This document shows positions 721-35,158 of a stretch of 64,000 bases of DNA, one piece after another. The translations under genes and the position numbers were made by a program. Source of the stretch: an uncultured Muribaculaceae bacterium (lineage in GTDB: Bacteria; Bacillota_I; Bacilli_A; RF39; UBA660); the NCBI GenBank assembly GCA_964555585.1, contig CAZKSN010000002.1, forward strand, positions 1,293-65,292. Reading direction: 5' to 3'. The notes beneath the pieces were generated by a model. That model saw only the letters and a program-made list of their open reading frames with translations. It was not told where the DNA came from and did not search any database. Within the stretch, counting starts at the first letter, position 1, and every line of letters begins with the position of its first letter.

Positions 721-2481
721 TTATATTTTTTTTAAGAAATTAAATAAAGTCTCTGATACAGCTTTTGGCAGTATTGCTTCCAGTTCTTCAATTGAAGCTT
801 CCTTAATCTTCTTAAGAGAACCAAATGTATTTATCAATTCTTTTTTTCTTTTGTCTCCAATTCCCTCCACTTGATCTAAAATACTGTTTAAACTTCCTTT
901 GCTTCTAATCTGTTTATGATAATTTATTGTGTATCTGTGAACTTCATCACCTATTCTGGACAGTAAATAAAATACATTACTTTTTTTATCTACATTAACA
1001 ATCTGCAGTGAATCTCCATCAATGAGTTCATTTGTTTTATGTTTATCATTCTTTTTCAAACCACATACTTTTATATTAAGATTAAAATCATTCAATACAC
1101 TTTTACATACATTAATTTGATTGATTCCACCATCTACTATGATTAATTCCGGCAACCTTAAATGTTCTTTAATTGCCTTAAAATACCTTCTATAAATTAC
1201 TTCTCTCATTGCCTGCACATCATCATTTTTTTCAAAAGACATTTTAAATTTTCTATACTCTTTCTTACTGGGAAGACCATCAATAAAAACAACCATGCCG
1301 GATACAGTAAAAGTGCCGAATAAATTTGAATTATCAAAGATTTCAATAACATTCAAAGTATCTAATTTCAATAATTCTCTTAACTCCTCATTAGCCTTGT
1401 AACTTCTTTCATCATTTCTGTATATAAGCTCTATTTCATTTTCTAAATTTATTTTTGCATTTTCATAAGCCATATCAAGCAGTCTCTTTTTATTTCCTTT
1501 TTGAACATTCAGTATTCTGGTCTTTAGTAATTCACCCAAAATATTACTGTCTATTCCTGCAGGAACCAGTATTTCCCTAGGAATTAAATTTTTCCTTTGA
1601 TAAAAATCCAGAATATAATACTCTAGTTCATCTTTTTCTGTACTTATTATCGGCTTAATTGAACTGTTGCTTCCAATAAGCTTTCCATTTCTTAAAAAGA
1701 ATACTTGTATGGAAATATATCCTTTATTAGAATAATAGCTGAATATGTCTCTGTTTACCCCATCATTCAATTCTACCTTTTGCCTTTCAAAAACTATAGA
1801 CATATAATCTAATTCTTTTTTCAGTTCCAATGCCTGCTCATAATTTAAACTTTCTGAGTAATATTCTATTTTTTCTCTTATTTTATCAATTAAAATATCA
1901 TCATTTCCATTCAGTATACTAATTATTTCACTTTTCATTGCTGTAATATCTATTTCTTTTTTAATACAGAAACCCAGGCATTCATTAATGTGAAAATACA
2001 AGCATTCTTTTTTAGGCATTGTGATGCATTTTCTAAGAGGATATATTCTGTTTAAGAGATATACCAATCTTCTTGCAGCATATACATTAGGGTATGGTCC
2101 GAATAAAAGTTTTTTCCTTTTGCTTATATTCAACTCTCTTCTTACAATAAGTCTTGGAAATCTTTCATTAGTTAGTTCTATGTACGGATAACTTTTATCA
2201 TCCTTTAATAATATATTATATTTCGGGTTATATTTCTTAATTAAATTTAATTCTAAAATAAAAGCTTCCAGTTCACTTGAAGTCACAATGTATTCAAAAG
2301 ATTTTATCTCACTTACAAGTACTCTGGTCTTTCCTTCCGTTCTTCCAGTGAAATAACTCTTTAATCTATTGAATAAGTTTTTTGCCTTGCCAACATAAAT
2401 AATAGTTCCTATTTCATTTTTCATTAAATAGCAACCGCTTTTTTTAGGAACAATGCTTAATTCAGTTTTAAACATAGACAT
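721..2481 (-). CDS. uvrC: Excinuclease ABC subunit C (UvrC)
   Basis: N-terminal GIY-YIG motif (GCYLMKN...IIYVGKAKNL.NRL.SYF). The 586-aa length and C-terminal HhH region (GIGDKRKKELINTFGSLKKI) fit UvrC. Confidence 0.9.
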   Translation of the reverse strand: MSMFKTELSIVPKKSGCYLMKNEIGTIIYVGKAKNLFNRLKSYFTGRTEGKTRVLVSEIKSFEYIVTSSELEAFILELNLIKKYNPKYNILLKDDKSYPYIELTNERFPRLIVRRELNISKRKKLLFGPYPNVYAARRLVYLLNRIYPLRKCITMPKKECLYFHINECLGFCIKKEIDITAMKSEIISILNGNDDILIDKIREKIEYYSESLNYEQALELKKELDYMSIVFERQKVELNDGVNRDIFSYYSNKGYISIQVFFLRNGKLIGSNSSIKPIISTEKDELEYYILDFYQRKNLIPREILVPAGIDSNILGELLKTRILNVQKGNKKRLLDMAYENAKINLENEIELIYRNDERSYKANEELRELLKLDTLNVIEIFDNSNLFGTFTVSGMVVFIDGLPSKKEYRKFKMSFEKNDDVQAMREVIYRRYFKAIKEHLRLPELIIVDGGINQINVCKSVLNDFNLNIKVCGLKKNDKHKTNELIDGDSLQIVNVDKKSNVFYLLSRIGDEVHRYTINYHKQIRSKGSLNSILDQVEGIGDKRKKELINTFGSLKKIKEASIEELEAILPKAVSETLFNFLKKI

Positions 2482-2533
2482 TCACCATTTATATTATATC
2501 AAATATTATAAATAATTGACTTTAATTTTAACT

Positions 2534-3178
2534 ATGTTAGAATATAAAATTGTAAGAGGTGATACTGTGACCAATAGAACAAGTCCATTAGCTAGAGATT
2601 TAATAAGTGAACAAGTGACAGGTTATTTAAGAGCGGTTATTGAAAGTTCTCAAAAGTATATAAAAGAATATACAAAAAACAGTGCTTATAAATACAGAGT
2701 TATATCTCTTGATGACTATAATTATTTATTAGAGAGTGGTAAGAATAAAAACGAATATTTTGAATTAAGAAACTATTATGACGGCTACGTTGAATTAAAT
2801 AGTGATGATATTGAAGAATTATTAAGTCTAATATATGAATCTTTATTAACTTATGATTTAAGTGAATGTGCTGTTACGGGTAGTTTAAGTTTATTGATTA
2901 CATTGCCACTTAGAAATCTTCAAGCTGAAATTGATAATAAGAAAAAATTATCCATTGATGATCTAAGTAAAAAATATAAATTGAAAAAATGGAGTTATAT
3001 TATTTTAGGTAATAAATGTTGCAGCATTTTAGAAGATTTTTTATGTGGTGTATGTGTTTCCTGGATTCATGATGATGAATTTGCAATCTACAATGATGAA
3101 GCAGATATCTGTAGAATTACTGTTGAAGGAATAGATAAACTAGAAGAAGCTGAAATAAAAAGAAAGCTGGATAAATAA
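2534..3178 (+). CDS. Hypothetical protein
   Basis: The track ORF begins at a TTG at 2516. The first ATG is at 2534 (MLEYKIVRGD...). No recognisable motifs. Confidence 0.45.
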   Translation: MLEYKIVRGDTVTNRTSPLARDLISEQVTGYLRAVIESSQKYIKEYTKNSAYKYRVISLDDYNYLLESGKNKNEYFELRNYYDGYVELNSDDIEELLSLIYESLLTYDLSECAVTGSLSLLITLPLRNLQAEIDNKKKLSIDDLSKKYKLKKWSYIILGNKCCSILEDFLCGVCVSWIHDDEFAIYNDEADICRITVEGIDKLEEAEIKRKLDK

Positions 3179-3209
3179 CTTTCTTTTTAATTTATGTTAT
3201 AATATTAAT

Positions 3210-3554
3210 ATGAAAATGATAAATGAAAGTTTTTATGAAATAAAAAAATCTAAATTCTATGGCTATTCTTATGAAATAAATAATATAAATGAAGTGGAAA
3301 GCATTCTAAATAAAATAAGAAGTGAACATAAGAAGGCAAAACATATTGTTTATGCATATAAAATAAATAATACTGAAAAGAAGTATGAAGCCAAGGAACC
3401 AGCGAACTCTGCCGGTAAACCTATTTTAAATATTATTAATGTTAAAAACTTAAATAATATTTTAATAGTTATTGTAAGATACTTTGGAGGTATACTATTA
3501 GGCAAGGGACCTTTAACGAGAGCTTATTCTAAAGCAACTTCAAAACTTTTTTAA
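3210..3554 (+). CDS. IMPACT/YigZ-family protein (UPF0029), N-terminal domain only
   Basis: Motifs SKFYGY, HIVYAYK, EP.NSAGKP and RYFGGILLG.G.L.RAY are characteristic of the YigZ N-domain. At 114 aa it is about half the usual length. Confidence 0.6.
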   Translation: MKMINESFYEIKKSKFYGYSYEINNINEVESILNKIRSEHKKAKHIVYAYKINNTEKKYEAKEPANSAGKPILNIINVKNLNNILIVIVRYFGGILLGKGPLTRAYSKATSKLF

Positions 3555-12214: not shown

Positions 12215-13849
12215 TTATTTTATTTTTACTAATTCTTTAACAGATCTAGCATTTACCTTTAAACTTGCTTCAATCAATGAATTGAATAAAGGGTGACATC
12301 TTGTAGGTCTGCTCTTAAATTCCGGATGAAACTGACAGGCTATAAAATGTGGATGAGATGGATATTCAATGATTTCAACCAATTCACTTTCTTTATTTAT
12401 TCCAGAGAATACTAATCCATGCTCTTCTAGAACCGCTTTATATTTATTATTAAATTCATAACGATGACGATGTCTTTCATAAATTATTTTTTTATTGTAA
12501 CATTTATAAGCTAATGTCTTTTCCCTAATATTGCATTTATAATTGCCTAATCTCATAGTTGCACCCAGATTTATAATGTTTTTTTGCTCTTCCATTATAT
12601 CAATAACCGGATTACTGGTATTTTCATCAAATTCAGTAGAATTCGCATCTTTTATTCCACAAACATTTCTACAAAATTCTATAACAGATAATTGAAGTCC
12701 CAGGCAAAGTCCCAGGAAAGGAATATTATTTTCTCTGGCATATTTTATTGCTTTAATCTTACCTTCAATGCCTCTGTTACCAAATCCACCTGGAACAACC
12801 ATTCCATCAATGTTTTTGAATACTAAACTTAAATTCTTGTTTTTTTCCAACTTTTCAGAATCTATCCAGTTAATTTTAATTTTTGTATTGTGATAGTAAC
12901 CTGCATGTTTTAATGATTCAGTTACTGAAATATATGCGTCATGCAGCTCCACATATTTTCCTACTATAGCAATTTCAACTTCATTTTCTAAAGATTCAAC
13001 TAAAGTGGTAAGTTTTTTCCAATCTGTTAAATTTATTCTCTTTAGAGGAAGTTTAAATTGATTCAATATGACTTCATCAATTTTCTGTTCATAAAAATTT
13101 AATGGAATTTGATATATATTCTTTACATTTATTGCCTCTATAATGTTGTATTCAGGTAAACTGCAGTACAATGATATCTTCTTTTTTAATTCTTCTCCCA
13201 TTTTAATTGGAGTTCTACATACTATTGCATCAGGCTGTATTCCCAGACCTCTCAATTCTATTACACTATGCTGTGTTGGCTTCGTTTTAAGTTCTCCAGA
13301 ACCATATATACTTGGCACTAAAGTTGTATGAACAAAAAATGTATTTTCAGCACCTAATTCATATCTGATCTGTCTTAATGCTTCCAAATATGCAAGTGAT
13401 TCTATATCACCTATGGTACCACCTATTTCAGTAATGACAACATCCGCTTTAGAAGTACTTCCAGCCTCATACACTTTACTTTTTATTTCATTGGTAATAT
13501 GGGGAACTATCTGAACAGTCGCTCCTAAGAATTCACCACGTCTTTCTTTTTCAATCACAGAATGATAAACTTTTCCAGTAGTGACACTGGAAGTATAATT
13601 CAATTCTTCATCTATAAATCTTTCATAATGACCTAAATCTAAATCAGTCTCACTTCCATCAGCTGTTACAAATACCTCACCATGCTGATATGGTGACATA
13701 GTTCCAGGATCTACATTGATATAAGGATCAAATTTCTGCATAAAAACCTTATATCCCCTGGATTTCAATAACAATCCAATTGATGATGCGGTTATCCCTT
13801 TTCCTAAACCAGAAACAACCCCTCCTGTTACAAACACATATTTAGTCAT
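12215..13849 (-). CDS. pyrG: CTP synthase
   Basis: MTKYVFVTGGVVSGLGKGI, followed by a glutamine amidotransferase C-domain (GLCLGLQ). The GGAGGT RBS precedes the ATG at 13849. The track's upstream ATG at 13864 lies inside that RBS. Confidence 0.95.
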   Translation of the reverse strand: MTKYVFVTGGVVSGLGKGITASSIGLLLKSRGYKVFMQKFDPYINVDPGTMSPYQHGEVFVTADGSETDLDLGHYERFIDEELNYTSSVTTGKVYHSVIEKERRGEFLGATVQIVPHITNEIKSKVYEAGSTSKADVVITEIGGTIGDIESLAYLEALRQIRYELGAENTFFVHTTLVPSIYGSGELKTKPTQHSVIELRGLGIQPDAIVCRTPIKMGEELKKKISLYCSLPEYNIIEAINVKNIYQIPLNFYEQKIDEVILNQFKLPLKRINLTDWKKLTTLVESLENEVEIAIVGKYVELHDAYISVTESLKHAGYYHNTKIKINWIDSEKLEKNKNLSLVFKNIDGMVVPGGFGNRGIEGKIKAIKYARENNIPFLGLCLGLQLSVIEFCRNVCGIKDANSTEFDENTSNPVIDIMEEQKNIINLGATMRLGNYKCNIREKTLAYKCYNKKIIYERHRHRYEFNNKYKAVLEEHGLVFSGINKESELVEIIEYPSHPHFIACQFHPEFKSRPTRCHPLFNSLIEASLKVNARSVKELVKIK

Positions 13850-13885
13850 TAGTATTACCTCCATAAATAAATAACATAAATAAAT

Positions 13886-13954: not shown

Positions 13955-14542
13955 TTAATTTTTTTTTCTTTTCAGTTTTGATATTTTCTCTATCAAAGGT
14001 TTACCGTATATTTCAGGATTTTCATTTAATATTTTCAGTATTTTTCTTTGAACTGTATTATATGTACCATATTCTGATTCATTAAAAATATATGCATAAT
14101 CAATTTCATTAATATTATTAAACAGCTTTGACAAGTAAATAGCAGTAAGTTCATCACATTCATCAGAAATTCCTGTAAATAAAATAACTGAAGTAACAGG
14201 GGCATCTTTTTTTATACTTTTCCATAAAGCTATTTCACCATACATTACTTTTATTAAAAATCTTTTTTTTAATAAATCCAACATATTTTTTACATTTTCA
14301 TGAACTTTATTAATGATATGCTGAACAGCTGCTGAACAATTCTTAAAATTTTCATCTATGTATTCATCTATTACAAGAACATGATAAACATTGCCCTGTT
14401 CCTCATCTTCAATTGAATCAAGAAAATCTGAAAAAAATTCACTATCTAATATTTCAATCACATTTTCTGCTATATCTTCTATTTTATCCTCAATCGCAGC
14501 AATTCCTTCTTCTTTAAAGTCTACTATTTTATCCATTAACAT
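13955..14542 (-). CDS. Hypothetical acidic protein
   Basis: ORF only; Glu/Asp-rich N-terminus. Confidence 0.45.
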   Translation of the reverse strand: MLMDKIVDFKEEGIAAIEDKIEDIAENVIEILDSEFFSDFLDSIEDEEQGNVYHVLVIDEYIDENFKNCSAAVQHIINKVHENVKNMLDLLKKRFLIKVMYGEIALWKSIKKDAPVTSVILFTGISDECDELTAIYLSKLFNNINEIDYAYIFNESEYGTYNTVQRKILKILNENPEIYGKPLIEKISKLKRKKN

Positions 14543-14771
14543 ACCTACTGAATTATTTTTTTAATGCCGCTTGTACCACAGCAATATTAGGTGGGCGAAT
14601 AACAACACAAACAACTTTTATGCATATATATTACCACAAAAATATTTATATATAAACACCTAAGTTTTGACTGATAACTAAAAACTGTATTGTATTCATA
14701 TATTTTAATTGTGTAGGTCTTTCAAAGCAATTTACTACATATATATTGGTAAAAAACAGTTTTTAATTGTA

Positions 14772-15179
14772 TTATTTAAAATCGTGTCTAATTATCTCAT
14801 ATACATAATCGTCATATCTAATAATTGCCCCAAGATGACTTCCAACTAATAACTTACCAATTTCTGAATCAGACGATATTGTAGGGTCTACTGAATCAGT
14901 AGGATTTCCTCCATAAACTTTCTTTAGAATATTATTATATTTTGGTCCATATTTGCCAAAACCAACAAAAACGCTTGAATATTCAATATATGTAGTTACA
15001 ATCCTATAATGATTTATTTCACCCGTTTTCATATTTTTCAAGTTTACAGTATCACCGACTTCTATTAAACCGCTTCTTGTATATTTGCATTCCGGATAAT
15101 TAGAACAACCATAGAAACTTCCAAATTTACCCATTCTATATCTTAACTTACCACCACATTTTGGACAATTATTTGGCAT
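14772..15179 (-). CDS. Topoisomerase-type C4 zinc-ribbon protein with a GreA/GreB C-terminal-like domain
   Basis: CPKCGGKLRYRMGKFGSFYGCSNYPECKYT matches the zf-C4_Topoisom pattern. The C-terminus SSDSEIGKLLVGSHLGAIIRYDDYVYEIIRHDF resembles the GreA FKBP-like tail. Confidence 0.55.
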   Translation of the reverse strand: MPNNCPKCGGKLRYRMGKFGSFYGCSNYPECKYTRSGLIEVGDTVNLKNMKTGEINHYRIVTTYIEYSSVFVGFGKYGPKYNNILKKVYGGNPTDSVDPTISSDSEIGKLLVGSHLGAIIRYDDYVYEIIRHDFK

Positions 15180-15220
15180 GAAATCCCTCCTTATTGAAAT
15201 ATATCTTTTTAAATTTATAC

Positions 15221-17095
15221 TTATACTAGATATATTAGAATTTCAGATATCATTTTTAATGTTTGATTTCTTATTTCTAAAGCTTTATTTTTTGAAAGAA
15301 TTAGATCCCTATGAAAATGTGAATTTCTGATTTCTTTAATCCAATACTCTAATAATTCAATAAAATCTGTTTGAGAATAACCATCTTTTATTATTGAGGA
15401 CTCTCTTTTTATATACTTACACATTTCCCCAAGTGTAAAATTTTCACCCCAATTAGATGTTTCCATATCGACAACTTCACTTTTTACATTATATATTTTT
15501 TTTACCTGAATTCCTTTTTTACTTCTATCTAAATAAAAATCTCTGATTTTTCTAGCTAATAAGATTTCTACAGCTTTAAAATAGTTTGCTACTATAGGTG
15601 TGTATTCTTGTCCATCTTTATCTATATTCATATTTTGTGTAGATTCATACAAACTCCAAAAGTAAGTTGCTGATAATAGTGTCTTTTTGACCTTAGAATA
15701 TTTTAATATATTGTTTATTAATTCTTCTGAATTACATATATTTAAATTTTCATACATAATTCGTAGCGAATCAATAACTTTAGATTCATCATATTCAGCA
15801 GTTAAAACTCGCTTATTAGCAAACTCAGAAATTTCTTTTAAATCACAAATGTTTACCAACTCGAGAGTATCTTTCAATGCACAATCAAAAAAATTCGAGT
15901 CCAATATATCTTTTTTAAAATCTAAAGCTTCATTCTTAGAAAAATCAAATATATTATTCATTTTACTAAATAAAGATGCCATTTCAGAATAAATTTTTAC
16001 TAATTCAAAGTATAATACATTATCTTCTATCATTCGTTTACTATTATTTTCAAATAATTCTTCTATATTGTCATTAATATCTTCTTCTATCGTATTTTCT
16101 TGAAAAAATTTTGTAAATATATTGCTAATTCTTAACTTGAAATCTTTTCCAATCCTAAGTTTTAAAAATAGTTCTTTTTCTATATTATTAAAAAGTTTTA
16201 CTTTTTCAGTAAAAGAAAAGTTTGAGATGTCTGTATATTTTAAAAGTCCTTCTAACTTTTTTAATTCACTAAAATCTAAAACAATATTTTTTATTTTAAG
16301 ATAATAAGTATCTAATTTTTTATTTAAATTTTTCCATCTAATTTTTGACTTTTCAGTATATGAATATAACATTTGAGCATGTTCACTATTTTCTACTAGT
16401 GGCAATATATTATAAATGTTCAATCCATAACTATCAATGTGAATCCCATTAATAGAAATAAATTCAAACAAAAGATTCCCCATTTTGAATCGAATTAAGA
16501 GATTTAAAATATCATACTCAAAATTTCGAACAATATTTGGATAAATATTTTCTAAACCAAGTTCAGCGTAATTTTTAATAAAATAATATAAATCGATATA
16601 TTCTTTTATAAAATCAGAATCTAGGTTATTCATTATATTTATAATAAAATAACTCATAATATCCTCTATCCCTAAACTGATTTTTAATTCATTATCATCA
16701 AAATTTTTCCAAACATTAGGGTCTGATAACTCTTCAATTGTTTTATCAATAGGCTGATCAGATTGTGGAAAAACACTATCAATGTATTCGGAATATTTAA
16801 TAACTTTGTTAACTATACTTTCAAACAGACATACTATATGTAAATAGTCAAAATGATCATACTCCTTGCTCTTTATATCATTATATAACATGTTCCATAT
16901 TTTATCATATCTAATCAATGCGTTGAAATCTTGTTCTAAAAATTTACCTTTTAAAAACCCCACATGAGAATTATACTTAAATACTAACTCATCATAGCGA
17001 TTAAAATTATCATTGTATATTGTTGAAAATAGTGGATTAAATTCTACTGGTTTCAATTTTATATATTCTTCTATCTTATTAATTCTATTATCCAT
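15221..17095 (-). CDS. Large hypothetical protein (624 aa) with a C-terminal Rx4H (HEPN-like) motif
   Basis: No housekeeping homolog recognised. The C-terminus reads ...EYWIKEIRNSHFHRDLIL. Confidence 0.5.
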   Translation of the reverse strand: MDNRINKIEEYIKLKPVEFNPLFSTIYNDNFNRYDELVFKYNSHVGFLKGKFLEQDFNALIRYDKIWNMLYNDIKSKEYDHFDYLHIVCLFESIVNKVIKYSEYIDSVFPQSDQPIDKTIEELSDPNVWKNFDDNELKISLGIEDIMSYFIINIMNNLDSDFIKEYIDLYYFIKNYAELGLENIYPNIVRNFEYDILNLLIRFKMGNLLFEFISINGIHIDSYGLNIYNILPLVENSEHAQMLYSYTEKSKIRWKNLNKKLDTYYLKIKNIVLDFSELKKLEGLLKYTDISNFSFTEKVKLFNNIEKELFLKLRIGKDFKLRISNIFTKFFQENTIEEDINDNIEELFENNSKRMIEDNVLYFELVKIYSEMASLFSKMNNIFDFSKNEALDFKKDILDSNFFDCALKDTLELVNICDLKEISEFANKRVLTAEYDESKVIDSLRIMYENLNICNSEELINNILKYSKVKKTLLSATYFWSLYESTQNMNIDKDGQEYTPIVANYFKAVEILLARKIRDFYLDRSKKGIQVKKIYNVKSEVVDMETSNWGENFTLGEMCKYIKRESSIIKDGYSQTDFIELLEYWIKEIRNSHFHRDLILSKNKALEIRNQTLKMISEILIYLV

Positions 17096-17289
17096 ATAAT
17101 ATTATCTCCTATATATTTCATATTATATCATGTATTATATTGAACATAAAGATTTCAAACTTAATAATTTGATTTTTTGTATTCCTTTATCGTTGTTATT
17201 ATATATTATTCTATATATCTTTTATCTCTTTTTAATAAATCAAAGGGTAACACTTCTTCTATTCTTTACTTATTAAATTTTATTTGTTC

Positions 17290-17598
17290 TTATTGATTAC
17301 CTTTTGGTTCTTTCAATATTTTTTCTACTTCATCATATGTTAATTTATCTTCATTACTTAACTTTCTTATTTGTCTAGATTGCATAATACTAGGTGTACA
17401 TTCATAATATTTGATTGCTGAGTAAACTAACTTTTGACTTTCATTATTTAAATATGATAATTCTTCCGCAGCATTAAGACCCAATAAGACCAAGTTCATT
17501 TGAAACATCATCTTGAGTAAGTTTTCTAAATCTTCTAATGTAGTTGATTCTTAAACCTTGAGATAAATCATCAATAGTTGCTATAAAAAATCTTTTCA
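17290..17598 (-). pseudogene. Possible frameshifted small HTH-domain gene
   Basis: The ATG at 17598 gives MKRFFIATIDDLSQGLRINYIRRFRKLTQDDVSNELGLIGS*. The +1 frame continues as the track ORF 17290..17511. An 8-bp inverted repeat CTAAGATA/TATCTTAG lies upstream (17648-17680). Confidence 0.3.
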
Positions 17599-17737
17599 TC
17601 TTATTTCACCACCTTTCCGCAATATCGCATAAACACTAAAAAAAGACTAAGATATGCGACATACATTCTCTATCTTAGTCTATTATTTATAATTTAATAG
17701 TATACTACAGCAAGTGGTGCAAAAATTTTGTTATTTA

Positions 17738-17768
17738 TTACAATCAAAAAAGCCCGTAAATACAGGCT
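17738..17768 (-). terminator. Rho-independent terminator of ppdK
   Basis: On the minus strand: AAAGCC-tgtatttac-GGGCTTTTTT. Confidence 0.5.
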
Positions 17769-17793
17769 TTTCTTGACTTTTTAATTTAATTTT

Positions 17794-20427
17794 TTATTGA
17801 TTATTTTTAGTTTTTATGGCAGCTTGAGCTGCAGCTAATCTTGCTATTGGAACTCTGTATGGACTGCATGATACATAATTCAATCCAGCTCTATGACAGA
17901 ATTCAACACTGCTTGGATCTCCACCATGTTCTCCGCAAATACCTAGTTTAATATCTGCTCTTGTTGATTTACCCTTTTCAGCAGCCATTTGAATCAGCTG
18001 CCCAACTCCCTCTTGATCTAATTTTGCAAAAGGATCGGATTCAAATATATTTTTCTCATAGTAATCAACCAGGAATTTTCCAGCATCATCTCTTGAAAAA
18101 CCATAGGTCATTTGAGTTAAATCATTAGTACCGAAACTAAAGAATTCAGCTTCTTTTGCAATTTCATCTGCTAATAATGCCGCTCTTGGCAATTCAATCA
18201 TAGTACCAACTTTATATTCCAAAGCTACATTATTTTCTTTAATAACACTCTCTGCGGTTTCAACTACTATATTCTTAACAAATTTTAATTCTTTTACTTC
18301 TCCGACTAAAGGTATCATTATTTCAGGAATCACATTCATTCCTTCTTTATTAACATTAATGGCAGCTTCAATAACCGCTCTTGTTTGCATTTTAGCTATT
18401 TCTGGATATGTAACTGCCAGTCTGCATCCACGATGTCCCATCATTGGATTAAACTCATGCAGTGAATCAATTCTTGCTTTTAAAGCCTCAAAAGTCATAT
18501 CAAGAGATTCAGCAAGTTCTTTAATTTCTCCAGCTTCATGAGGTAAGAATTCATGTAAAGGAGGATCCAAATAACGAATAGTTACCGGAAATCCCTTTAA
18601 TGTTTTAAATAATTCTTCAAAATCTCCTCTTTGCATTGGAAGAATTTTATTCAAGGCTGCTTCTCTTTGTTCTACAGTTTCAGCAACAATCATTTGTCTT
18701 ACAGCAAAAATTCTATCTTCCTCAAAAAACATATGTTCTGTACGACACAATCCTATTCCTTCAGCTCCAAACTTTACTGCCTGAAGAGCATCTCTAGGAG
18801 TATCTGCATTAGTCCTTACTTTTAATTTACGAACACTATCAGCCCAAGCCATGAATTTTTCAAAATCTCCACTTATCTCCGGTTCAACAGTTTTAATTTT
18901 TTCTCCGTAGACGTTTCCAGTAGAACCATTTAAAGACAAGTAGTCACCTTCTTTATATATTTTACCAGTTTTTGTAGTTAAAGTTTTTGCTTCTTCATCT
19001 ATTTTTAGTTCTCCACAGCCACATACACAGCATCTTCCCATGCCACGAGCAACTACTGCTGCATGACTTGTCATACCACCGCGAATTGTCAAGATACCAC
19101 TAGCATCATTCATACCTTCTATGTCTTCTGGAGAAGTTTCAAGACGAACAAGTAATATTTCTTTTTCTCCGTTTTTACGCGCTTCTACAACATCTTCAGC
19201 ATTAAAATATATCTTTCCGGTAGCCGCTCCAGGAGATGCAGCTAAACCTGTTGCAATAGGTTCTGCTTCCTTTAAAGCATTTGCATCAAAATTAGGATGC
19301 AAAAGCTGGTCTAATTGCTTTGGTTCAACTTTTAATAAAGCTTCTTCCTTTGTAAGCATTCCCTCTTCTACTAAATCCACTGCTATTTTCAATGCAGCCG
19401 CAGCTGTTCTTTTACCATTTCTAGTTTGAAGCATGAATAATTTACCGTTTTCTATTGTAAATTCCATATCTTGCATATCTTTATAATGTTTTTCAAGAAT
19501 ATCAGCTATTTTAATAAATTCATTGTATACTTCAGGCATTTCATCCTTTAAAGTATCAATTACCTGAGGAGTTCTTATTCCTGCAACTACATCTTCACCT
19601 TGAGCATTTATTAAGTATTCTCCATATAAATGTTTTTCTCCAGTAGATGGATTCCTTGTGAAAGCCACTCCAGTTCCACAGTCATTTCCACGATTACCGT
19701 AAACCATTTCTTGAACATTAACCGCAGTACCCCAGTTGTTTGGAATATCATTAAGTCTTCTGTAAGTAATAGCTCTATCATTCATCCATGATCTAAATAC
19801 TGCTTTAATAGCTTCTAATAATTGAACTTTTGGATCTTGTGGAAAATCTTCATTAGATAATTCTTTATAGTTAGCTTTAAATTTTTCAGTTACTTCCATC
19901 ATATCTTCAGCAGTCAATTCCAAATCACTTTTAACTCCCTTTTCTTCTTTAATTTTATCAAAATATCTTTCAAATGAAGCTTTTGAATACCCTTTAACAA
20001 CATCTGCAAACATTTGAATAAACCTACGATAAGAGTCATAAGCAAATCTAGGATTATTTGTTGCCTCTGCAAATCCTTTGGCAACTTCATCATTAAGTCC
20101 TAGGTTTAATACAGTATCCATCATACCGGGCATACTTGCTCTTGATCCGCTTCTAACTGAAACCAATAAAGGATTATTAATGTTTCCCATCTGCTTTCCA
20201 GTTTCTTTTTCCAAAGTATCCAGTTGTTCAAATATTTCTTTAACAATACTTTCATTAATTTCCTGTTTGTCATCATAATATTTTGTACAAGCTTCAGTAG
20301 TAATAGTAAAACCTCTTGGAACAGGCAGTCCAATGTTAGTCATTTCCGCTAAATTGGCACCTTTTCCTCCAAGAAGATTCTTCATGTCCTTATTTCCTTC
20401 TTTAAACATATATACATATTTTTCCAT
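17794..20427 (-). CDS. ppdK: Pyruvate, phosphate dikinase
   Basis: N-terminus KNLLGGKGANLAEM, phospho-His region GGMTSHAAVVARG and the PEP-utilising C-domain. 877 aa. AGGAGG RBS. Confidence 0.95.
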   Translation of the reverse strand: MEKYVYMFKEGNKDMKNLLGGKGANLAEMTNIGLPVPRGFTITTEACTKYYDDKQEINESIVKEIFEQLDTLEKETGKQMGNINNPLLVSVRSGSRASMPGMMDTVLNLGLNDEVAKGFAEATNNPRFAYDSYRRFIQMFADVVKGYSKASFERYFDKIKEEKGVKSDLELTAEDMMEVTEKFKANYKELSNEDFPQDPKVQLLEAIKAVFRSWMNDRAITYRRLNDIPNNWGTAVNVQEMVYGNRGNDCGTGVAFTRNPSTGEKHLYGEYLINAQGEDVVAGIRTPQVIDTLKDEMPEVYNEFIKIADILEKHYKDMQDMEFTIENGKLFMLQTRNGKRTAAAALKIAVDLVEEGMLTKEEALLKVEPKQLDQLLHPNFDANALKEAEPIATGLAASPGAATGKIYFNAEDVVEARKNGEKEILLVRLETSPEDIEGMNDASGILTIRGGMTSHAAVVARGMGRCCVCGCGELKIDEEAKTLTTKTGKIYKEGDYLSLNGSTGNVYGEKIKTVEPEISGDFEKFMAWADSVRKLKVRTNADTPRDALQAVKFGAEGIGLCRTEHMFFEEDRIFAVRQMIVAETVEQREAALNKILPMQRGDFEELFKTLKGFPVTIRYLDPPLHEFLPHEAGEIKELAESLDMTFEALKARIDSLHEFNPMMGHRGCRLAVTYPEIAKMQTRAVIEAAINVNKEGMNVIPEIMIPLVGEVKELKFVKNIVVETAESVIKENNVALEYKVGTMIELPRAALLADEIAKEAEFFSFGTNDLTQMTYGFSRDDAGKFLVDYYEKNIFESDPFAKLDQEGVGQLIQMAAEKGKSTRADIKLGICGEHGGDPSSVEFCHRAGLNYVSCSPYRVPIARLAAAQAAIKTKNNQ

Positions 20428-21648: not shown

Positions 21649-22323
21649 TTATAATTTATATGTATCGTTAATGAATCTTTTTAAACTTAAACTTTCTGCG
21701 GCTTCTTTTTCTCTTTGCATTTTAATTTTTTCTGCAAGCATTCTTACTGCCTGAGATACAGTAGGATATGTAGTTTCATTTAAATAAGAATTCATTGGAC
21801 GACCTGTTGTTCCTTTTTTTGAATCACAGTCAGGAGAATGAAATACAGCCACCTGCTGACAAAGCTGTTCAGCATTTACATAAATAGTGTCATAAAAGGT
21901 TGAAAATTTTTCTTTATTTCTTTCACTTGCCCAAGAATTATATTTAAGCACTACTCCATATTGAGACAATAATTCTTTATCAGTTTTAAAATTTCTTGGA
22001 GTAGGCATTTTTTCAAGCAAAGCTGCAGCTAATTCTAATTCCTCCAGTGAAACTATTTGAAATTCAGAAGCCATCTCAATAAATTTTTCTGTTACTTTAT
22101 ATGTTTCTCCTACCTTATTCAAAAATTCATTCTTACATATTGCAATATCACGATAAACTGTAGCTGTTGTAATCAATTCCGGAGTAATAACAGTTTCCCA
22201 ACTATTTCCATTTTCTATTAAATAAATTATTATTTTGTATACAAAACCTTCTAAATCTGCATCTTGAAGTAAACTATCACAAAACCATCCCAACTTAACC
22301 TGACTAGGTAAAAATTTTCTCAT
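21649..22323 (-). CDS. Hypothetical protein
   Basis: ORF only. Its codon usage looks slightly less AT-biased than the neighbours. Confidence 0.45.
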   Translation of the reverse strand: MRKFLPSQVKLGWFCDSLLQDADLEGFVYKIIIYLIENGNSWETVITPELITTATVYRDIAICKNEFLNKVGETYKVTEKFIEMASEFQIVSLEELELAAALLEKMPTPRNFKTDKELLSQYGVVLKYNSWASERNKEKFSTFYDTIYVNAEQLCQQVAVFHSPDCDSKKGTTGRPMNSYLNETTYPTVSQAVRMLAEKIKMQREKEAAESLSLKRFINDTYKL

Positions 22324-31573: not shown

Positions 31574-32025
31574 TTTTCCTCCTCCATATTCTTTATTTCA
31601 TCATCTGTAATTAAATTCCATCCATTTCCACTTGTTTTTATATTAACATCTTCTTTAACAATTCGACTTGGAATTTCTAGTACTATATTTTCCCATACAA
31701 TTGGAAAAATATCAAGTGTATTTGCTAAATTATTTAAATTTTCTTGCTCAACTGTATTATTTATATTTATATTAAAAGGATATTCAACTTCTTCTAAACT
31801 TAATGCACATAATAAAATCATAACTCCAGTTACATTTAAATTTAATTCAAAAAGACCATCATCGAGTTTATAAACATTTCCATTAACTTTTATTTTACTT
31901 ATTCTTTTTATATCTGTATTCTTAATATCTTCTTCGGATATTTCAAATTCTCCATTTATTTCATATACTTCTTCATTCAAACTTAAATCTATTTTCATAA
32001 CTGCCTCCTTGCTTTTATTATACAA
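31570..32025 (-). CDS. yceD: YceD/DUF177 family protein (23S rRNA accumulation protein)
   Basis: Conserved position upstream of rpmF. A DUF177-like acidic protein. Confidence 0.65.
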   Translation of the reverse strand: MYNKSKEAVMKIDLSLNEEVYEINGEFEISEEDIKNTDIKRISKIKVNGNVYKLDDGLFELNLNVTGVMILLCALSLEEVEYPFNININNTVEQENLNNLANTLDIFPIVWENIVLEIPSRIVKEDVNIKTSGNGWNLITDDEIKNMEEEK

Positions 32026-32092
32026 CTTATAACTATTTATAACAATTGAATTTAATTAATTTGTAAAGTATAATCTTATTGAGAGGTTGTTT

Positions 32093-33232
32093 ATGAATAC
32101 AATTGGAATAGTGGTAGAATATAATCCATTTCACAATGGTCATTTATATCAGATTAATAAAGTTAAAGAATTATATCCGGGCTCAACAATAATAGTCGTA
32201 ATGAGTTCTTCTTTTACTCAAAGAGGAGAAATATCTGTTTTGGATAAATGGACAAAGACAGAAATAGCTTTATATTATAAAGTAGATTTGGTTGTAGAAC
32301 TACCTTATGTATTTTCAGTTCAAGGAGCTGATGTGTTTGCTAAAGGAGCTATTAGTATTTTAAATGCTTTAAAAATAGATACCTTAGTATTTGGAAGTGA
32401 AACAATTGACTTAAATAAATTATTAACAGTTGCTAGAACTCAATTAAATAATAAAAGATTTGATAATAAGTTAAAAAAATATTTAAATGAAGGAATAAGT
32501 TATCCTAATGCGATATCTAAGACAATAAAAGATATTACAAATTATTCAGTATCTGAATCAAATGAATTATTAGCTATTTCATATATTAAAGAGATTTTAA
32601 AACAAAATGATAAAATTAATATAGTACCTTTATTAAGAAATAAAAATTATGAAGATATTAAATTAAGTGAAAAAATCATTAGTGCGACTGATATTAGAAA
32701 TAGATTAAAAACTAAAGAAAATATAAAAAGTTATGTACCTGCCTATACATATAAATATTTAAAAAATATTAACATTGATTATGATAAATATTTCTTTTTA
32801 TTAAAATATAAAATTCTTTCATGCAAAGATCTTACAATATACTTAGATGTAAACGAAGGAATAGAAAACAGAATTATAAAAGCGGCTACTATATCAACTA
32901 ACCTTGAAGAATTAATAAGCAATATTAAATCCAAAAGATATGCATTTAATAAAATATGTAGAATGTTAAATCATATTTTAACTGACTTTACTAAAGAAGA
33001 TACTAAAAAATATAAAGATATAGAATATATAAGAATTTTAGGTTTTAACAATAATGGTAAAATGCATTTAAATAAAATAAAAAAAGATATGAAATATCCT
33101 ATTATTTCTAAGTTTGATAATAAATATAATTTACTTCAATATGAATTAAAAATAACTAAAATATACTCTTTAATTTTAAATAATAACTGTCTAATTGAAA
33201 AAGAATATAAAAGTAAGCCATTGATTTTATAA
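32093..33232 (+). CDS. tmcAL: tRNA(Met) cytidine acetate ligase TmcAL (YlbM/UPF0348 nucleotidyltransferase)
   Basis: IVVEYNPFHNGHLYQI (HxGH-type) and a UPF0348 signature. The track starts at a TTG at 32087. The ATG at 32093 has a GAGAGG RBS. Confidence 0.8.
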   Translation: MNTIGIVVEYNPFHNGHLYQINKVKELYPGSTIIVVMSSSFTQRGEISVLDKWTKTEIALYYKVDLVVELPYVFSVQGADVFAKGAISILNALKIDTLVFGSETIDLNKLLTVARTQLNNKRFDNKLKKYLNEGISYPNAISKTIKDITNYSVSESNELLAISYIKEILKQNDKINIVPLLRNKNYEDIKLSEKIISATDIRNRLKTKENIKSYVPAYTYKYLKNINIDYDKYFFLLKYKILSCKDLTIYLDVNEGIENRIIKAATISTNLEELISNIKSKRYAFNKICRMLNHILTDFTKEDTKKYKDIEYIRILGFNNNGKMHLNKIKKDMKYPIISKFDNKYNLLQYELKITKIYSLILNNNCLIEKEYKSKPLIL

Positions 33233-33292
33233 CTTTTTATTGAATTATTTTTTTAAAAGTGATATAATATATAACATTTTCAAGGGGGATTT

Positions 33293-34282
33293 ATGTACGA
33301 GAATAACAGTGATGAAGCTGATTATTATAATATTATATATTGCGCTACTAGTGAATTTAAAAATTTTTTATTACATGCAATAAATATATTCGAACAAATT
33401 ATATTAAATTCAGATACTTTTTGTTATACTTTTCCTGTTAAAGCTTCAAAAAAATATGAAAATGCACAATTAAATACTATTGATGCAGCAGGTATTTCTT
33501 TATTTTTATCAGCAATTATTACAAATCAAGAATTAGCTAAAGTATTAAGTGATTCAAATATCACTTTTGAAAGAGTATTAGAATATGTAAAAATTAAAGA
33601 TTTTACAATGAAATTTAATTTTGGTGGTAAAGAAGCTTTAATTGTTTTTAATGAATATTTTCTTAACATTATAAAGAAACACATGGAATTAAACAATATT
33701 TCAGATACTAGTTTACTTAATTCTAATCAACTGATATTTGATTTGTATAAAAAAGAAAATTTTAATACAGATATAATTAATTTGATATATAAATTTTTAT
33801 TTATTTTTGAATATGATGATGATGCAGCTAAACATAAAAGTTATAAAAAAATCAAGAAATTATTGGAAGACACAAAATTATATAATGAAATTAAAAAAGA
33901 AGAAAATTCTGTTCCAATTACTAAACAAATGAATGATAATATAAATATAAAGTCAGAGAAAAAATTAACAAAAAATGATACAAGTATTAAAAATAAAATA
34001 TTAAAATTAGAAACTGACTATAATAAAAAAATTGATATAGATTATTCTACTTTTTTTGAAATATTAAATTATATTTCAAATATTTCAAAAAGTCTATCTT
34101 CTAGAAAAGTTGAATTTATAAAATCTATTATTGAAAGTACTTTTAAAAATTCTGATAAAGAAACTGTAACTGTAGAAGATTTTATAACTTCAATATTAAA
34201 TAGTGATAGATTATTATCTTCTCAAAAAGAACAATATGCTATTGAGATGTTTGATAATTGGTATCCTACTTTAAGTAAATAA
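33293..34282 (+). CDS. Hypothetical protein (Asn/Lys-rich)
   Basis: ORF only. Confidence 0.4.
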   Translation: MYENNSDEADYYNIIYCATSEFKNFLLHAINIFEQIILNSDTFCYTFPVKASKKYENAQLNTIDAAGISLFLSAIITNQELAKVLSDSNITFERVLEYVKIKDFTMKFNFGGKEALIVFNEYFLNIIKKHMELNNISDTSLLNSNQLIFDLYKKENFNTDIINLIYKFLFIFEYDDDAAKHKSYKKIKKLLEDTKLYNEIKKEENSVPITKQMNDNINIKSEKKLTKNDTSIKNKILKLETDYNKKIDIDYSTFFEILNYISNISKSLSSRKVEFIKSIIESTFKNSDKETVTVEDFITSILNSDRLLSSQKEQYAIEMFDNWYPTLSK

Positions 34283-34303
34283 AAGAAAAGAATTTAATTA
34301 ATA

Positions 34304-35158
34304 TTATTTATTAGGTTTTACATCTATAAAAATATATTTAATATCATTAAATTCTTTTTTTATTTTTTTAATAATTTTTTCTTTAATTCTATATATATTT
34401 TTCAATTTTATATTTTTATCCATTATTATTTCTAAGTTCATTGACATATAAGAACCATATTTCAATAAAGTTATATTTTTTATTTCAAGTACTTTATCAT
34501 AATTTAAAATAATATTTTTTATTATTTCATTTTTTTCTGGATCTATATCTTTTTCTCCCAATACACTTTTTATATTTTCAGTAAATATTTTAAGTCCAAC
34601 TTTTAAAGTTAATATAGATATAACTATACTTCCTATCATATCTGCATATCTTAAAACATATATATATTTTTGAAAATAAGAAATTATTACTATAAATAAA
34701 GCAAATGTTGTGTTAACAGCGTCAAATCTACTTTCATAACCACTTGAAATTAATATATTACTATTAATTTTTTTTCCATTCTTTAATAAATAATTTGATA
34801 TTAATATTTTTAATACTAGAGATGCAATTATTAATATAAATACATAAAAAGAATAGTTAATTTTTCTAATAGAAAACGAATTTAAGAATATCATTACTCC
34901 TAATGAAATAACAAATAAACTTATAAAAATGCTTGTAACATATTCCATTTTGCCATGTCCATAAGGATGAGTTTTATCTGGTTTTTTTGCTGCTATTTTA
35001 GAACCTGTTAAAGCAACTATGTCAGTAGAAAAATCAGATAATCCATGAACTGCATCTGCAAGTAAAGTTTTAGAATTAGTAAGTAAACTTACTATAATTT
35101 TTATAATTGCTAAAAAAAGATTAACAAAAAAACTTTTTAACATAATTTTAAATGTCAT
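34304..35158 (-). CDS. Cation diffusion facilitator family transporter
   Basis: Transmembrane helices with HGLSDFSTD and HPYGHGKME motifs, plus a C-terminal cytoplasmic domain. Confidence 0.8.
   Translation of the reverse strand: MTFKIMLKSFFVNLFLAIIKIIVSLLTNSKTLLADAVHGLSDFSTDIVALTGSKIAAKKPDKTHPYGHGKMEYVTSIFISLFVISLGVMIFLNSFSIRKINYSFYVFILIIASLVLKILISNYLLKNGKKINSNILISSGYESRFDAVNTTFALFIVIISYFQKYIYVLRYADMIGSIVISILTLKVGLKIFTENIKSVLGEKDIDPEKNEIIKNIILNYDKVLEIKNITLLKYGSYMSMNLEIIMDKNIKLKNIYRIKEKIIKKIKKEFNDIKYIFIDVKPNK

Follow-up and report, generated by a model that had tools for sequence, protein, structure and literature searches.

A strain-variable two-gene cassette encoding a candidate HEPN-domain nuclease and a zinc-ribbon protein in a low-GC Firmicute genome of the RF39 lineage

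Background

The HEPN core is formed of two alpha-hairpins, with an acidic residue conserved in helix 2, a variable insert separating helices 2 and 3, and an Rx4-6H motif placed where helix 3 ends and running into the following loop (PMC3710099). Among the proteins that contain this core, the closest described relatives of the one presented here are RnlA and LsoA, from the RnlAB and LsoAB type II toxin-antitoxin (TA) and anti-phage systems of Escherichia coli, multi-domain proteins carried by mobile DNA with the HEPN domain at their C-terminus. In RnlA, four residues of this domain (R255, E258, R318 and H323) are each essential to RNase activity and toxicity (PMC8266594). We describe here a two-gene cassette encoding a 624-amino acid (aa) protein with an HEPN-like C-terminal domain and, downstream of it, a 135-aa zinc-ribbon protein. 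The cassette lies in a stretch of 64,000 nucleotides (hereafter, the window) of contig CAZKSN010000002.1 (assembly GCA_964555585.1, positions 1,293 to 65,292), from an uncultured bacterium deposited as Muribaculaceae and placed by GTDB in the RF39 lineage.

The gene order of rnlA-rnlB and lsoA-lsoB, in which the gene of the large HEPN protein is directly followed by a gene for a protein of about 125-135 aa, is matched by this cassette, and both motifs of RnlA/LsoA, basic-x-x-E in helix 2 and R-x4-H closing helix 3, stand in register with the 624-aa protein. The resemblance does not extend to the N-terminus, which consists of two TBP-like domains in RnlA and is all-helical in the AlphaFold2 (AF2) model of the 624-aa protein, to which residues 1-195 of RnlA did not align. 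The partners also differ, RnlB being unrelated to the zinc-ribbon/GreA-C-like protein found here, as do the first basic residue, an arginine (R255) in RnlA and a lysine (K507) here, and the host, here a low-GC Firmicute.

Three other groups of HEPN systems provide points of comparison. RAZR (PD-T7-4) is an abortive-infection (Abi) RNase of about 200 aa that joins an N-terminal C4 zinc finger and a C-terminal DUF4145 HEPN domain on one polypeptide, and its zinc-finger domain recognises phage ring proteins (PMC13017515). The cassette likewise brings together in one unit a C4 zinc ribbon and a divergent HEPN recognisable by remote or structural similarity only, but the ribbon is carried by a separate downstream protein, and no member of the family matches DUF4145 or the PADLOC model of PD-T7-4. 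The single-protein HEPN Abi systems (AbiD/AbiF of the Abi_2 family, AbiU2, AbiV and AbiJ; PMC3710099) are also large, mostly helical proteins with a C-terminal RNxxxH, borne by plasmids or prophages and often without a dedicated antitoxin; none of the 50 family members scanned matches the Abi_2, AbiU2, AbiV or AbiJ families of Pfam and PADLOC. Finally, the toxins of the HEPN-MNT modules (HepT-MntA) share an Rx4-6H HEPN, and the minimal structures 2hsb, 4nqf and 2jpu are among the top Foldseek matches of the domain described below, but the 624-aa protein is much larger and its gene has no MNT nucleotidyltransferase neighbour.

Results and discussion

The C-terminal domain of the 624-aa protein and its family

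The gene of the 624-aa protein (15221..17095, minus strand) encodes a helical N-terminal region of about 460 aa followed by the HEPN-like domain (aa ~467-624; 15224..15697, minus strand). An earlier note, written from the letters of this DNA, had described the protein as devoid of housekeeping identity and had pointed to a C-terminal Rx4H as a possible HEPN signature. Both observations hold, as the protein has no match in Pfam, NCBIfam, PADLOC, PHROGs or the PDB sequences, and the motif, RNSHFH at residues 590-595 (15311..15328, minus strand), is its sole Rx4-6H. Since an Rx4H occurs in 18% of shuffles of the protein and an RNx3H in 1.9%, the motif alone says little, and its significance comes from its conservation across the family.

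This family is sparse. A word-indexed search of 5.8 billion proteins retrieved the 624-aa protein itself, its 89% identical variant from contig L002 and one partial match at 39%, and HMMER, run exhaustively over 1.84 billion representatives, yielded 30 matches, nearly all restricted to query residues ~455-624. A profile search retrieved 54 proteins, many of them of 130-320 aa and none with a precomputed Pfam domain. The C-terminal family, of about 160 residues, comprises ~30-54 cluster representatives, most of which are located in prophages or mobile elements. Pfam and PADLOC scans of 30-50 members revealed no consistent family; in particular, DUF4145, Swt1 and AbiU2, which the earlier note had put forward as candidates, found no match in Pfam scans that included the family members. 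A first scan of genome contigs with the full 624-aa protein gave no relative, and a tblastn search of phage GenBank records gave no match.

Five residues, K507, E510, R590, N591 and H595, show little or no variation in the family alignments (A1, A2, A3 and A6): R590 and N591 are invariant in all four, and K507 and E510 in A2, A3 and A6. Y505 is likewise invariant in A3, conservation reaches at least 90% at T499, L513, G556 and H595, and the subfamily of short forms (A6) keeps GY.K..E and R...FHK invariant. The basic and acidic residues belong to a K507-A-V-E510 segment of helix 2 (15566..15577, minus strand), which aligns to R255/E258 of RnlA, as RNSHFH aligns to R318...H323.

The AF2 model of the domain, computed on a 50-sequence alignment (predicted local distance difference test, pLDDT, 91.4; predicted template modelling score, pTM, 0.88), consists of helices 467-485, 499-526 (containing K507 and E510), 575-589 (immediately followed by R590-N591) and 602-622, with a 48-residue insert (527-574) between helices 2 and 3 and with H595 in the loop after helix 3. 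This predicted layout matches the published HEPN core: in the model, R590-x4-H595 occupies the position expected of the Rx4-6H that characterises the superfamily, and its acidic residue of helix 2 corresponds to E510, aligned to E258 of RnlA. The six Foldseek matches of highest probability in the PDB, 2jpu (which we take to be an HEPN protein), RnlA 6y2p, Csm6 6tug and 5yjc, 4nqf and 2hsb, are all HEPN, and the top-probability match in BFVD, below threshold, is a MAE_28990-like HEPN protein. The full-length model of the 624-aa protein (pLDDT 67, about 95 at the C-terminus) is entirely alpha-helical and returned only helical-repeat noise with Foldseek.

Profile comparison with RnlA/LsoA was carried out with hhalign against the HEPN portion of an alignment of seven sequences (the rnlA product of E. 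coli K-12, two homologues from IMG/VR and four genes annotated on plasmids); a single RnlA sequence was uninformative, the signal being seen only with this alignment. The 50-sequence family gave one local alignment of 84 columns (score 26.7, P 1.2e-3), in which K507/E510/R590/H595 fall on R255/E258/R318/H323, and the short-form subfamily alone a score of 31.4 (P 2.9e-4). Column-shuffled RnlA alignments scored 11.9 +/- 1.9 with a maximum of 17.8, none of the 60 shuffles reaching the real score, and reversed alignments scored 10-13; the real scores thus lie 7-10 standard deviations (sd) above the shuffles. In global or low-MAC (maximum accuracy) mode both subfamilies are colinear with RnlA/LsoA over ~135-142 columns.

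Several results weigh against this assignment. The best Foldseek E-value of the domain model is 0.9, none being significant; Pfam matches of the family to any HEPN family reach E 0.09-0.5 at best; no PADLOC model is matched by the region or the family, so the check that the earlier note had proposed with this resource gave nothing; and the PDB sequence search with two family profiles found nothing meaningful. The hhalign probabilities amount to 20-40% only, the null obtained by shuffling columns is lenient, the alignment of RnlA/LsoA holds seven sequences only, K507 stands where RnlA has R255, and the N-terminal ~460 residues are family-specific, poorly modelled and unexplained. What supports an HEPN fold is a convergence of sub-threshold signals, with no single significant match. 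Taking together the motif conservation, the predicted topology, the modest but above-null profile match to RnlA/LsoA and the catalytic residues in register, we regard it as likely that the C-terminus is an HEPN-fold nuclease domain of an undescribed family, having RnlA/LsoA as nearest described relative, which sustains what the earlier note had suspected from the motif. The protein does not belong to the RnlA family, because it stays below the Pfam cutoff (RnlA-toxin_DBD, PF19034: E 0.093 for one member and, for the family consensus, E 0.5 with 11.2 bits where the cutoff is 27), its N-terminus is all-helical and not TBP-like, and its partner is unrelated to RnlB; the NCBIfam RnlA models gave no match either.

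It could alternatively be proposed that the 624-aa protein is a lineage-specific orphan, whose C-terminal module would be non-catalytic (structural, or binding proteins or nucleotides), with a coincidental RNxxxH and no role in conflict. The lack of a significant database match, the chance frequency of Rx4H, the native codon usage of the gene (see below) and the location of some homologues among housekeeping genes would agree with such a protein. Coincidence would nevertheless have to account for four invariant residues, in a family of ~20-30% identity, in register with the four essential residues of RnlA, for hhalign scores 7-10 sd above the shuffled null, for the dominance of HEPN proteins among the top Foldseek probabilities, and for a family enriched in prophages and mobile elements and including truncated copies, and we hold this explanation to be improbable.

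The two genes form a strain-variable unit

The extent of the cassette is given by its comparison with contig L002 (Logan SRR8925744), whose 90.2% nucleotide identity with the window is confined to positions 17149-14765, both flanks being unrelated by blastn and tblastx. The cassette so delimited (14765..17149, minus strand) contains the 624-aa gene, preceded by a leader/promoter region of ~54 bp, and, after a gap of 41 bp, the 135-aa gene with 7 bp past its stop; with about 2.4 kb, it is smaller than the span first proposed (14543-17790). Both open reading frames (ORFs) are full length in L002, the 624-aa protein sharing 89% aa identity with that of the window and the 135-aa protein ~79%, the latter value being obtained through its cluster representative. 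The upstream flank in L002 comprises a truncated spoIVA and a gene for a 326-aa Fe-S-loop protein, and the downstream flank a different gene. The spoIVA sequence (L002:1-315) ends after about residue 125 of the ATPase domain and is followed by the cassette region; either a lineage that is losing sporulation has kept it as a pseudogene, or an inserted element may have broken a sporulation gene.

Closer relatives vary as well. An independent assembly that is 99.5% identical (L010) has the same arrangement as the window, including the split ORFs upstream of the cassette. Two JGI contigs, L041 and L042, follow the window at 98-99.5% identity from 17948 to 14552, that is from ppdK through the cassette, and diverge at 14552 (L041:3398, L042:4703), exactly 10 bp upstream of a 195-aa ORF. 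Beyond this point they carry a thymidine-kinase (tdk)-like start, a permease of the AI-2E type, a 577-aa protein resembling a prepilin and spo0A, with neither the 195-aa ORF nor pyrG; position 14552 is a strain-level rearrangement breakpoint. The unrelated flanks of L002 and the divergence of these near-identical strains therefore indicate that the locus is strain-variable on both sides and that the two genes travel together, in agreement with the accessory nature that the earlier note had attributed to the region. Of the outcomes which that note had named as contrary to its proposal, namely homology to a housekeeping family, universal synteny and no predicted HEPN fold, none was observed.

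The GC content, the GC content at third codon positions (GC3) and the synonymous-codon fit of both cassette genes are within 1.1 sd of the other genes of the window, so the deviation for which the earlier note had suggested looking does not exist and a compositional island is ruled out. Any exchange is therefore old, or occurred among genomes of similarly low GC. This native-like composition counts against the view of the cassette as a shuffled unit, as do its junctions, where neither direct or inverted repeats nor transposon-like ends were seen and where no recombinase is present. A search for an empty site on contigs bearing the 193-aa neighbour described below showed either the same arrangement or fragments too short to tell. 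Within the block shared with L002, a putative extended -10 element, TGATATAAT (17122-17130, minus strand), and a ribosome-binding site (RBS), AGGAG (17106-17110, minus strand), can be read upstream of the 624-aa gene; both assignments are tentative, the overall promoter scan being not above chance.

The zinc-ribbon partner

The 135-aa gene (14772..15179, minus strand) has its own RBS, AAGGAGG, within the 41-bp gap, and is probably co-transcribed with the 624-aa gene. The earlier note had described its product as a zinc ribbon combined with a tail that resembles the GreA/GreB C-domain. The ribbon is confirmed: aa 4-36 (15072..15170, minus strand) form a Topoisomerase-I-type C4 zinc ribbon whose match to Zn_ribbon_Top1 (PF01396; E 1.6e-16, 60.2 bits) exceeds the gathering score of 32. 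The tail is less clear, since PF01272 matches only aa 37-62 of the intact protein (E 7e-4, 19.9 bits) and, when aa 66-97 are deleted in silico, positions 6-62 of the 77 of the profile (E 7.9e-5, 23.0 bits), both scores being below the Pfam cutoff of 26.9. Judged from its sequence, aa 37-135 (14775..15071, minus strand) plausibly constitute a divergent FKBP-like GreA-C domain with an insertion of about 32 aa (66-97). GreA_GreB_N is absent from the protein, the N-terminus being the zinc ribbon, so it is not a GreA/GreB transcript-cleavage factor.

The 135-aa gene is kept with the 624-aa gene, in the same order, in L002, inside the 90%-identical block, and in L010. Past the zinc ribbon, its only homologues are the cluster representatives P0004 (~99% identical) and P0005 (79%), and matches in phage GenBank records (tblastn) are confined to the ribbon. 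The zinc-ribbon/GreA-C partner accompanies only the subfamily of the window, and our literature search on the combination of zinc ribbon, GreA and HEPN found nothing relevant. Two observations tell against a partnership of the RnlAB kind or of general necessity: the 135-aa protein has no similarity to RnlB (BLASTP E 3.5), and full-length homologues of the 624-aa protein occur without a zinc-ribbon partner in L014, between alaS and rlmN, and in L013, so the partner is not a general requirement.

These data also bear on a strict type II TA pair of the RnlAB/LsoAB kind, in which the 624-aa protein would be a constitutively toxic RNase and the 135-aa protein an antitoxin blocking the active site of the HEPN dimer. 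The gene order and partner size of rnlA-rnlB and lsoA-lsoB, the tight 41-bp gap with its own RBS, the conservation of the pair as a unit in another context, and the fact that RnlA gives the closest sequence and structure signal are all arguments for such a pair. They are opposed by the lack of RnlB similarity, by a Top1 zinc ribbon and GreA-C-like domain that suggest binding to nucleic acid or RNA polymerase and not a simple plug, by an N-terminus that is all-helical and not TBP-like, and by the full-length homologues of L011, L013 and L014 that lack the 135-aa partner. On balance, we consider a strict TA pair rather unlikely.

Genomic contexts of the family and the ParB fragment

Short forms of the HEPN-like family were found in 20 IMG/VR viral contigs, often close to contig ends. 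At the end of a prophage (L021), a 583-aa member comes after two large serine recombinases and the endolysin, another adjoins an IS1595 transposase, a serine recombinase and ImmA/helix-turn-helix (HTH) and LexA-like genes (L006), and two others come after HTH and DnaC-like replication modules (L008 and L017), DnaC/Toprim replication modules being also among the contexts of the members; the member of L009 adjoins GmrSD_N and MazG-like genes. Full-length relatives appear as single insertions in related low-GC Firmicutes, downstream of whiA (L001), between alaS and rlmN (L014) and in L013. In Clostridium sp. CAG:914 (L011:3667-6258, minus strand, and 1550-3313, plus strand), a 706-aa homologue lies beside a large serine recombinase and is divergent from an 863-aa UvrD-type helicase with two C-terminal Top1 zinc ribbons, and the recurrence of this type of ribbon beside the HEPN-like family may be meaningful. 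Stand-alone 135-aa copies, corresponding to the last two-thirds of the HEPN-like domain, are located between spoIVB and spoIIM in two contigs (L003:6001-6408 and L012:7992-8399); that of L012 is identical to the C-terminus of the 684-aa protein P0016, and both copies appear to be 5'-deleted remnants of full-length genes. Conflict genes typically show a distribution of this kind, patchy and mobile, with decaying copies.

Two side observations were made on these contigs. The 852-aa homologue P0003 (L001:313-2871), encoded directly downstream of whiA, shows at its N-terminus a weak resemblance to MutS domain I (Pfam E 8.6e-4, slightly short of the cutoff). In L013, the genes of two paralogous proteins of about 180 aa (94-633 and 2128-2694) lie upstream of that of the 613-aa homologue P0014, which one of them directly precedes; both proteins contain the motif GG.NF(T/S)NEE..LR(W/Y) and belong to no assigned family.

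In the window, the cassette is preceded by a truncated and frameshifted ParB/RepB/Spo0J pseudogene fragment (17290..17599, minus strand), which the earlier note had taken for a small, frameshifted XRE-like HTH gene. The frameshift is real, with a 41-aa ORF (17474-17599) and a 73-aa ORF (17290-17511) in different frames, also found in L010, but the XRE label was rejected: HTH_19 reaches 19.5 bits where the cutoff demands 30.2, and the best matches are ParB/RepB/Spo0J. The merged 102-aa reading matches plasmid ParB/RepB/Spo0J genes by tblastn (E 3e-7) over residues 8-102, spanning the frameshift, and is equivalent to about residues 181-266 of a 314-aa Monoglobus ParB. From its sequence, the fragment is a 5'-truncated middle and C-terminal piece of ParB, a pseudogene and not a functional member of the family. 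It lies outside the 14765-17149 block and is absent from the L002 context; ParB and the cassette are therefore not obligatorily linked, and the fragment is an unrelated mobile-element scar left by a plasmid or integrative element, not the degraded regulator of the module that had been proposed.

This scar nevertheless raises the question of whether the cassette and the ParB fragment are together the last cargo of one decayed prophage, plasmid or integrative element, perhaps non-functional. Such an origin would be in line with a ParB pseudogene directly upstream, a family common in viral contigs, relatives with 5'-truncated copies and a structurally variable neighbourhood. Against it stand two cassette ORFs that are intact and that are full length in L002 at 89% and ~79% aa identity, which suggests purifying selection; nor do other mobile-element genes flank the locus within the window, and a common remnant seems quite unlikely to us.

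Proposed function

The explanation that we favour, although we would give it no better than even chances, is that of a self-contained, horizontally shuffled two-gene cassette in which an HEPN RNase protein is associated with its cognate regulator, with an Abi- or toxin-like outcome. Two HEPN domains would dimerise, K507, E510, R590 and H595 forming a composite RNase active site, and the N-terminal helical region would most likely restrain the nuclease until phage infection, stress or a similar trigger releases it. Once activated, the 624-aa protein would cleave RNA and cause growth arrest, as Abi systems or toxins do. The 135-aa protein would most likely be the cognate regulator, either an inhibitor in the position of RnlB or an adaptor binding nucleic acid or protein; this role is deduced from linkage only, and, by loose analogy with the zinc finger of RAZR, the protein could be a sensing adaptor. 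The cassette thus probably belongs to a general type of toxin or anti-phage module that is already known, and is not fundamentally new. A more specific version, which we judge to have a low probability, is a two-component anti-phage system where the zinc-ribbon/GreA-C-like protein would sense a phage product, or dock on RNA polymerase or nucleic acid, and thereby license an RnlA-like HEPN clade.

Neighbouring genes and spacers

The window has a GC content of ~25%, and the genes around the locus are all on the minus strand. They are bordered by ppdK (pyruvate, phosphate dikinase; 17794-20427, minus strand; TIGR01828, 1436 bits) and pyrG (CTP synthase; 12215-13864, minus strand; NCBIfam E 7.5e-251), identities that NCBIfam bears out, and the interval between them holds the three genes without housekeeping identity described in the earlier note, at the same coordinates. 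In the order of transcription, one encounters the 41-aa ORF, the 73-aa ORF, a 194-bp spacer, the 624-aa ORF, the 41-bp gap, the 135-aa ORF and a 229-bp spacer. The spacer upstream of the 624-aa gene (17096-17289) contains the cassette boundary at 17149, as determined by comparison with L002, and the one downstream of the cassette (14543-14771) the strain-level breakpoint at 14552 revealed by L041 and L042. Both had been regarded as non-coding, rightly so: the plus-strand ORFs are all spurious and shorter than 50 aa, and an Rfam scan of 13-19 kb, both spacers included, gave no match.

Between the cassette and pyrG lies an acidic 195-aa ORF (13955-14542, minus strand) that matches no family significantly in Pfam, NCBIfam, PADLOC or PHROGs; the protein collection lacks this exact sequence, and a 193-aa form starting two codons later was found on two contigs only. 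Two hairpins, each followed by a T run, separate the stop of ppdK from the ParB fragment (17640-17780, minus strand): the first, AGCCTGTATTTACGGGCT, presumably terminates ppdK, and the second has a 10-bp stem, GACTAAGATA...TATCTTAGTC. Both were missed by the terminator scan because they contain too few G-C pairs, the promoter and terminator scans of the region remaining at chance level. Elsewhere in the window, a 224-aa ORF (21649-22323, minus strand) downstream of an aspartate/ornithine carbamoyltransferase-like gene has no family match, and the region 32000-35000 shows the lowest GC of the window (0.18), with plus-strand genes and a reversed skew.

Conclusions

The general mechanism considered here, that of an HEPN RNase toxin, is already well known, and the practical value of the finding is modest: a profile of the family could join annotation and defence-finder resources. 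The locus illustrates cleanly the exchange of a 2.4-kb cassette between different chromosomal contexts with no evident recombinase, and the partner combines its domains in an unusual way, the Top1 zinc ribbon being joined to a GreA-C-like domain. If the prediction holds, an HEPN RNase clade that has no Pfam, NCBIfam, PADLOC or PHROGs model would be added to the defence and toxin repertoire, originating from uncultured low-GC gut Firmicutes and their prophages, in which defence systems are poorly charted. Should the anti-phage reading be true, this clade would represent a previously unrecognised effector family spread through the prophages of gut Firmicutes.

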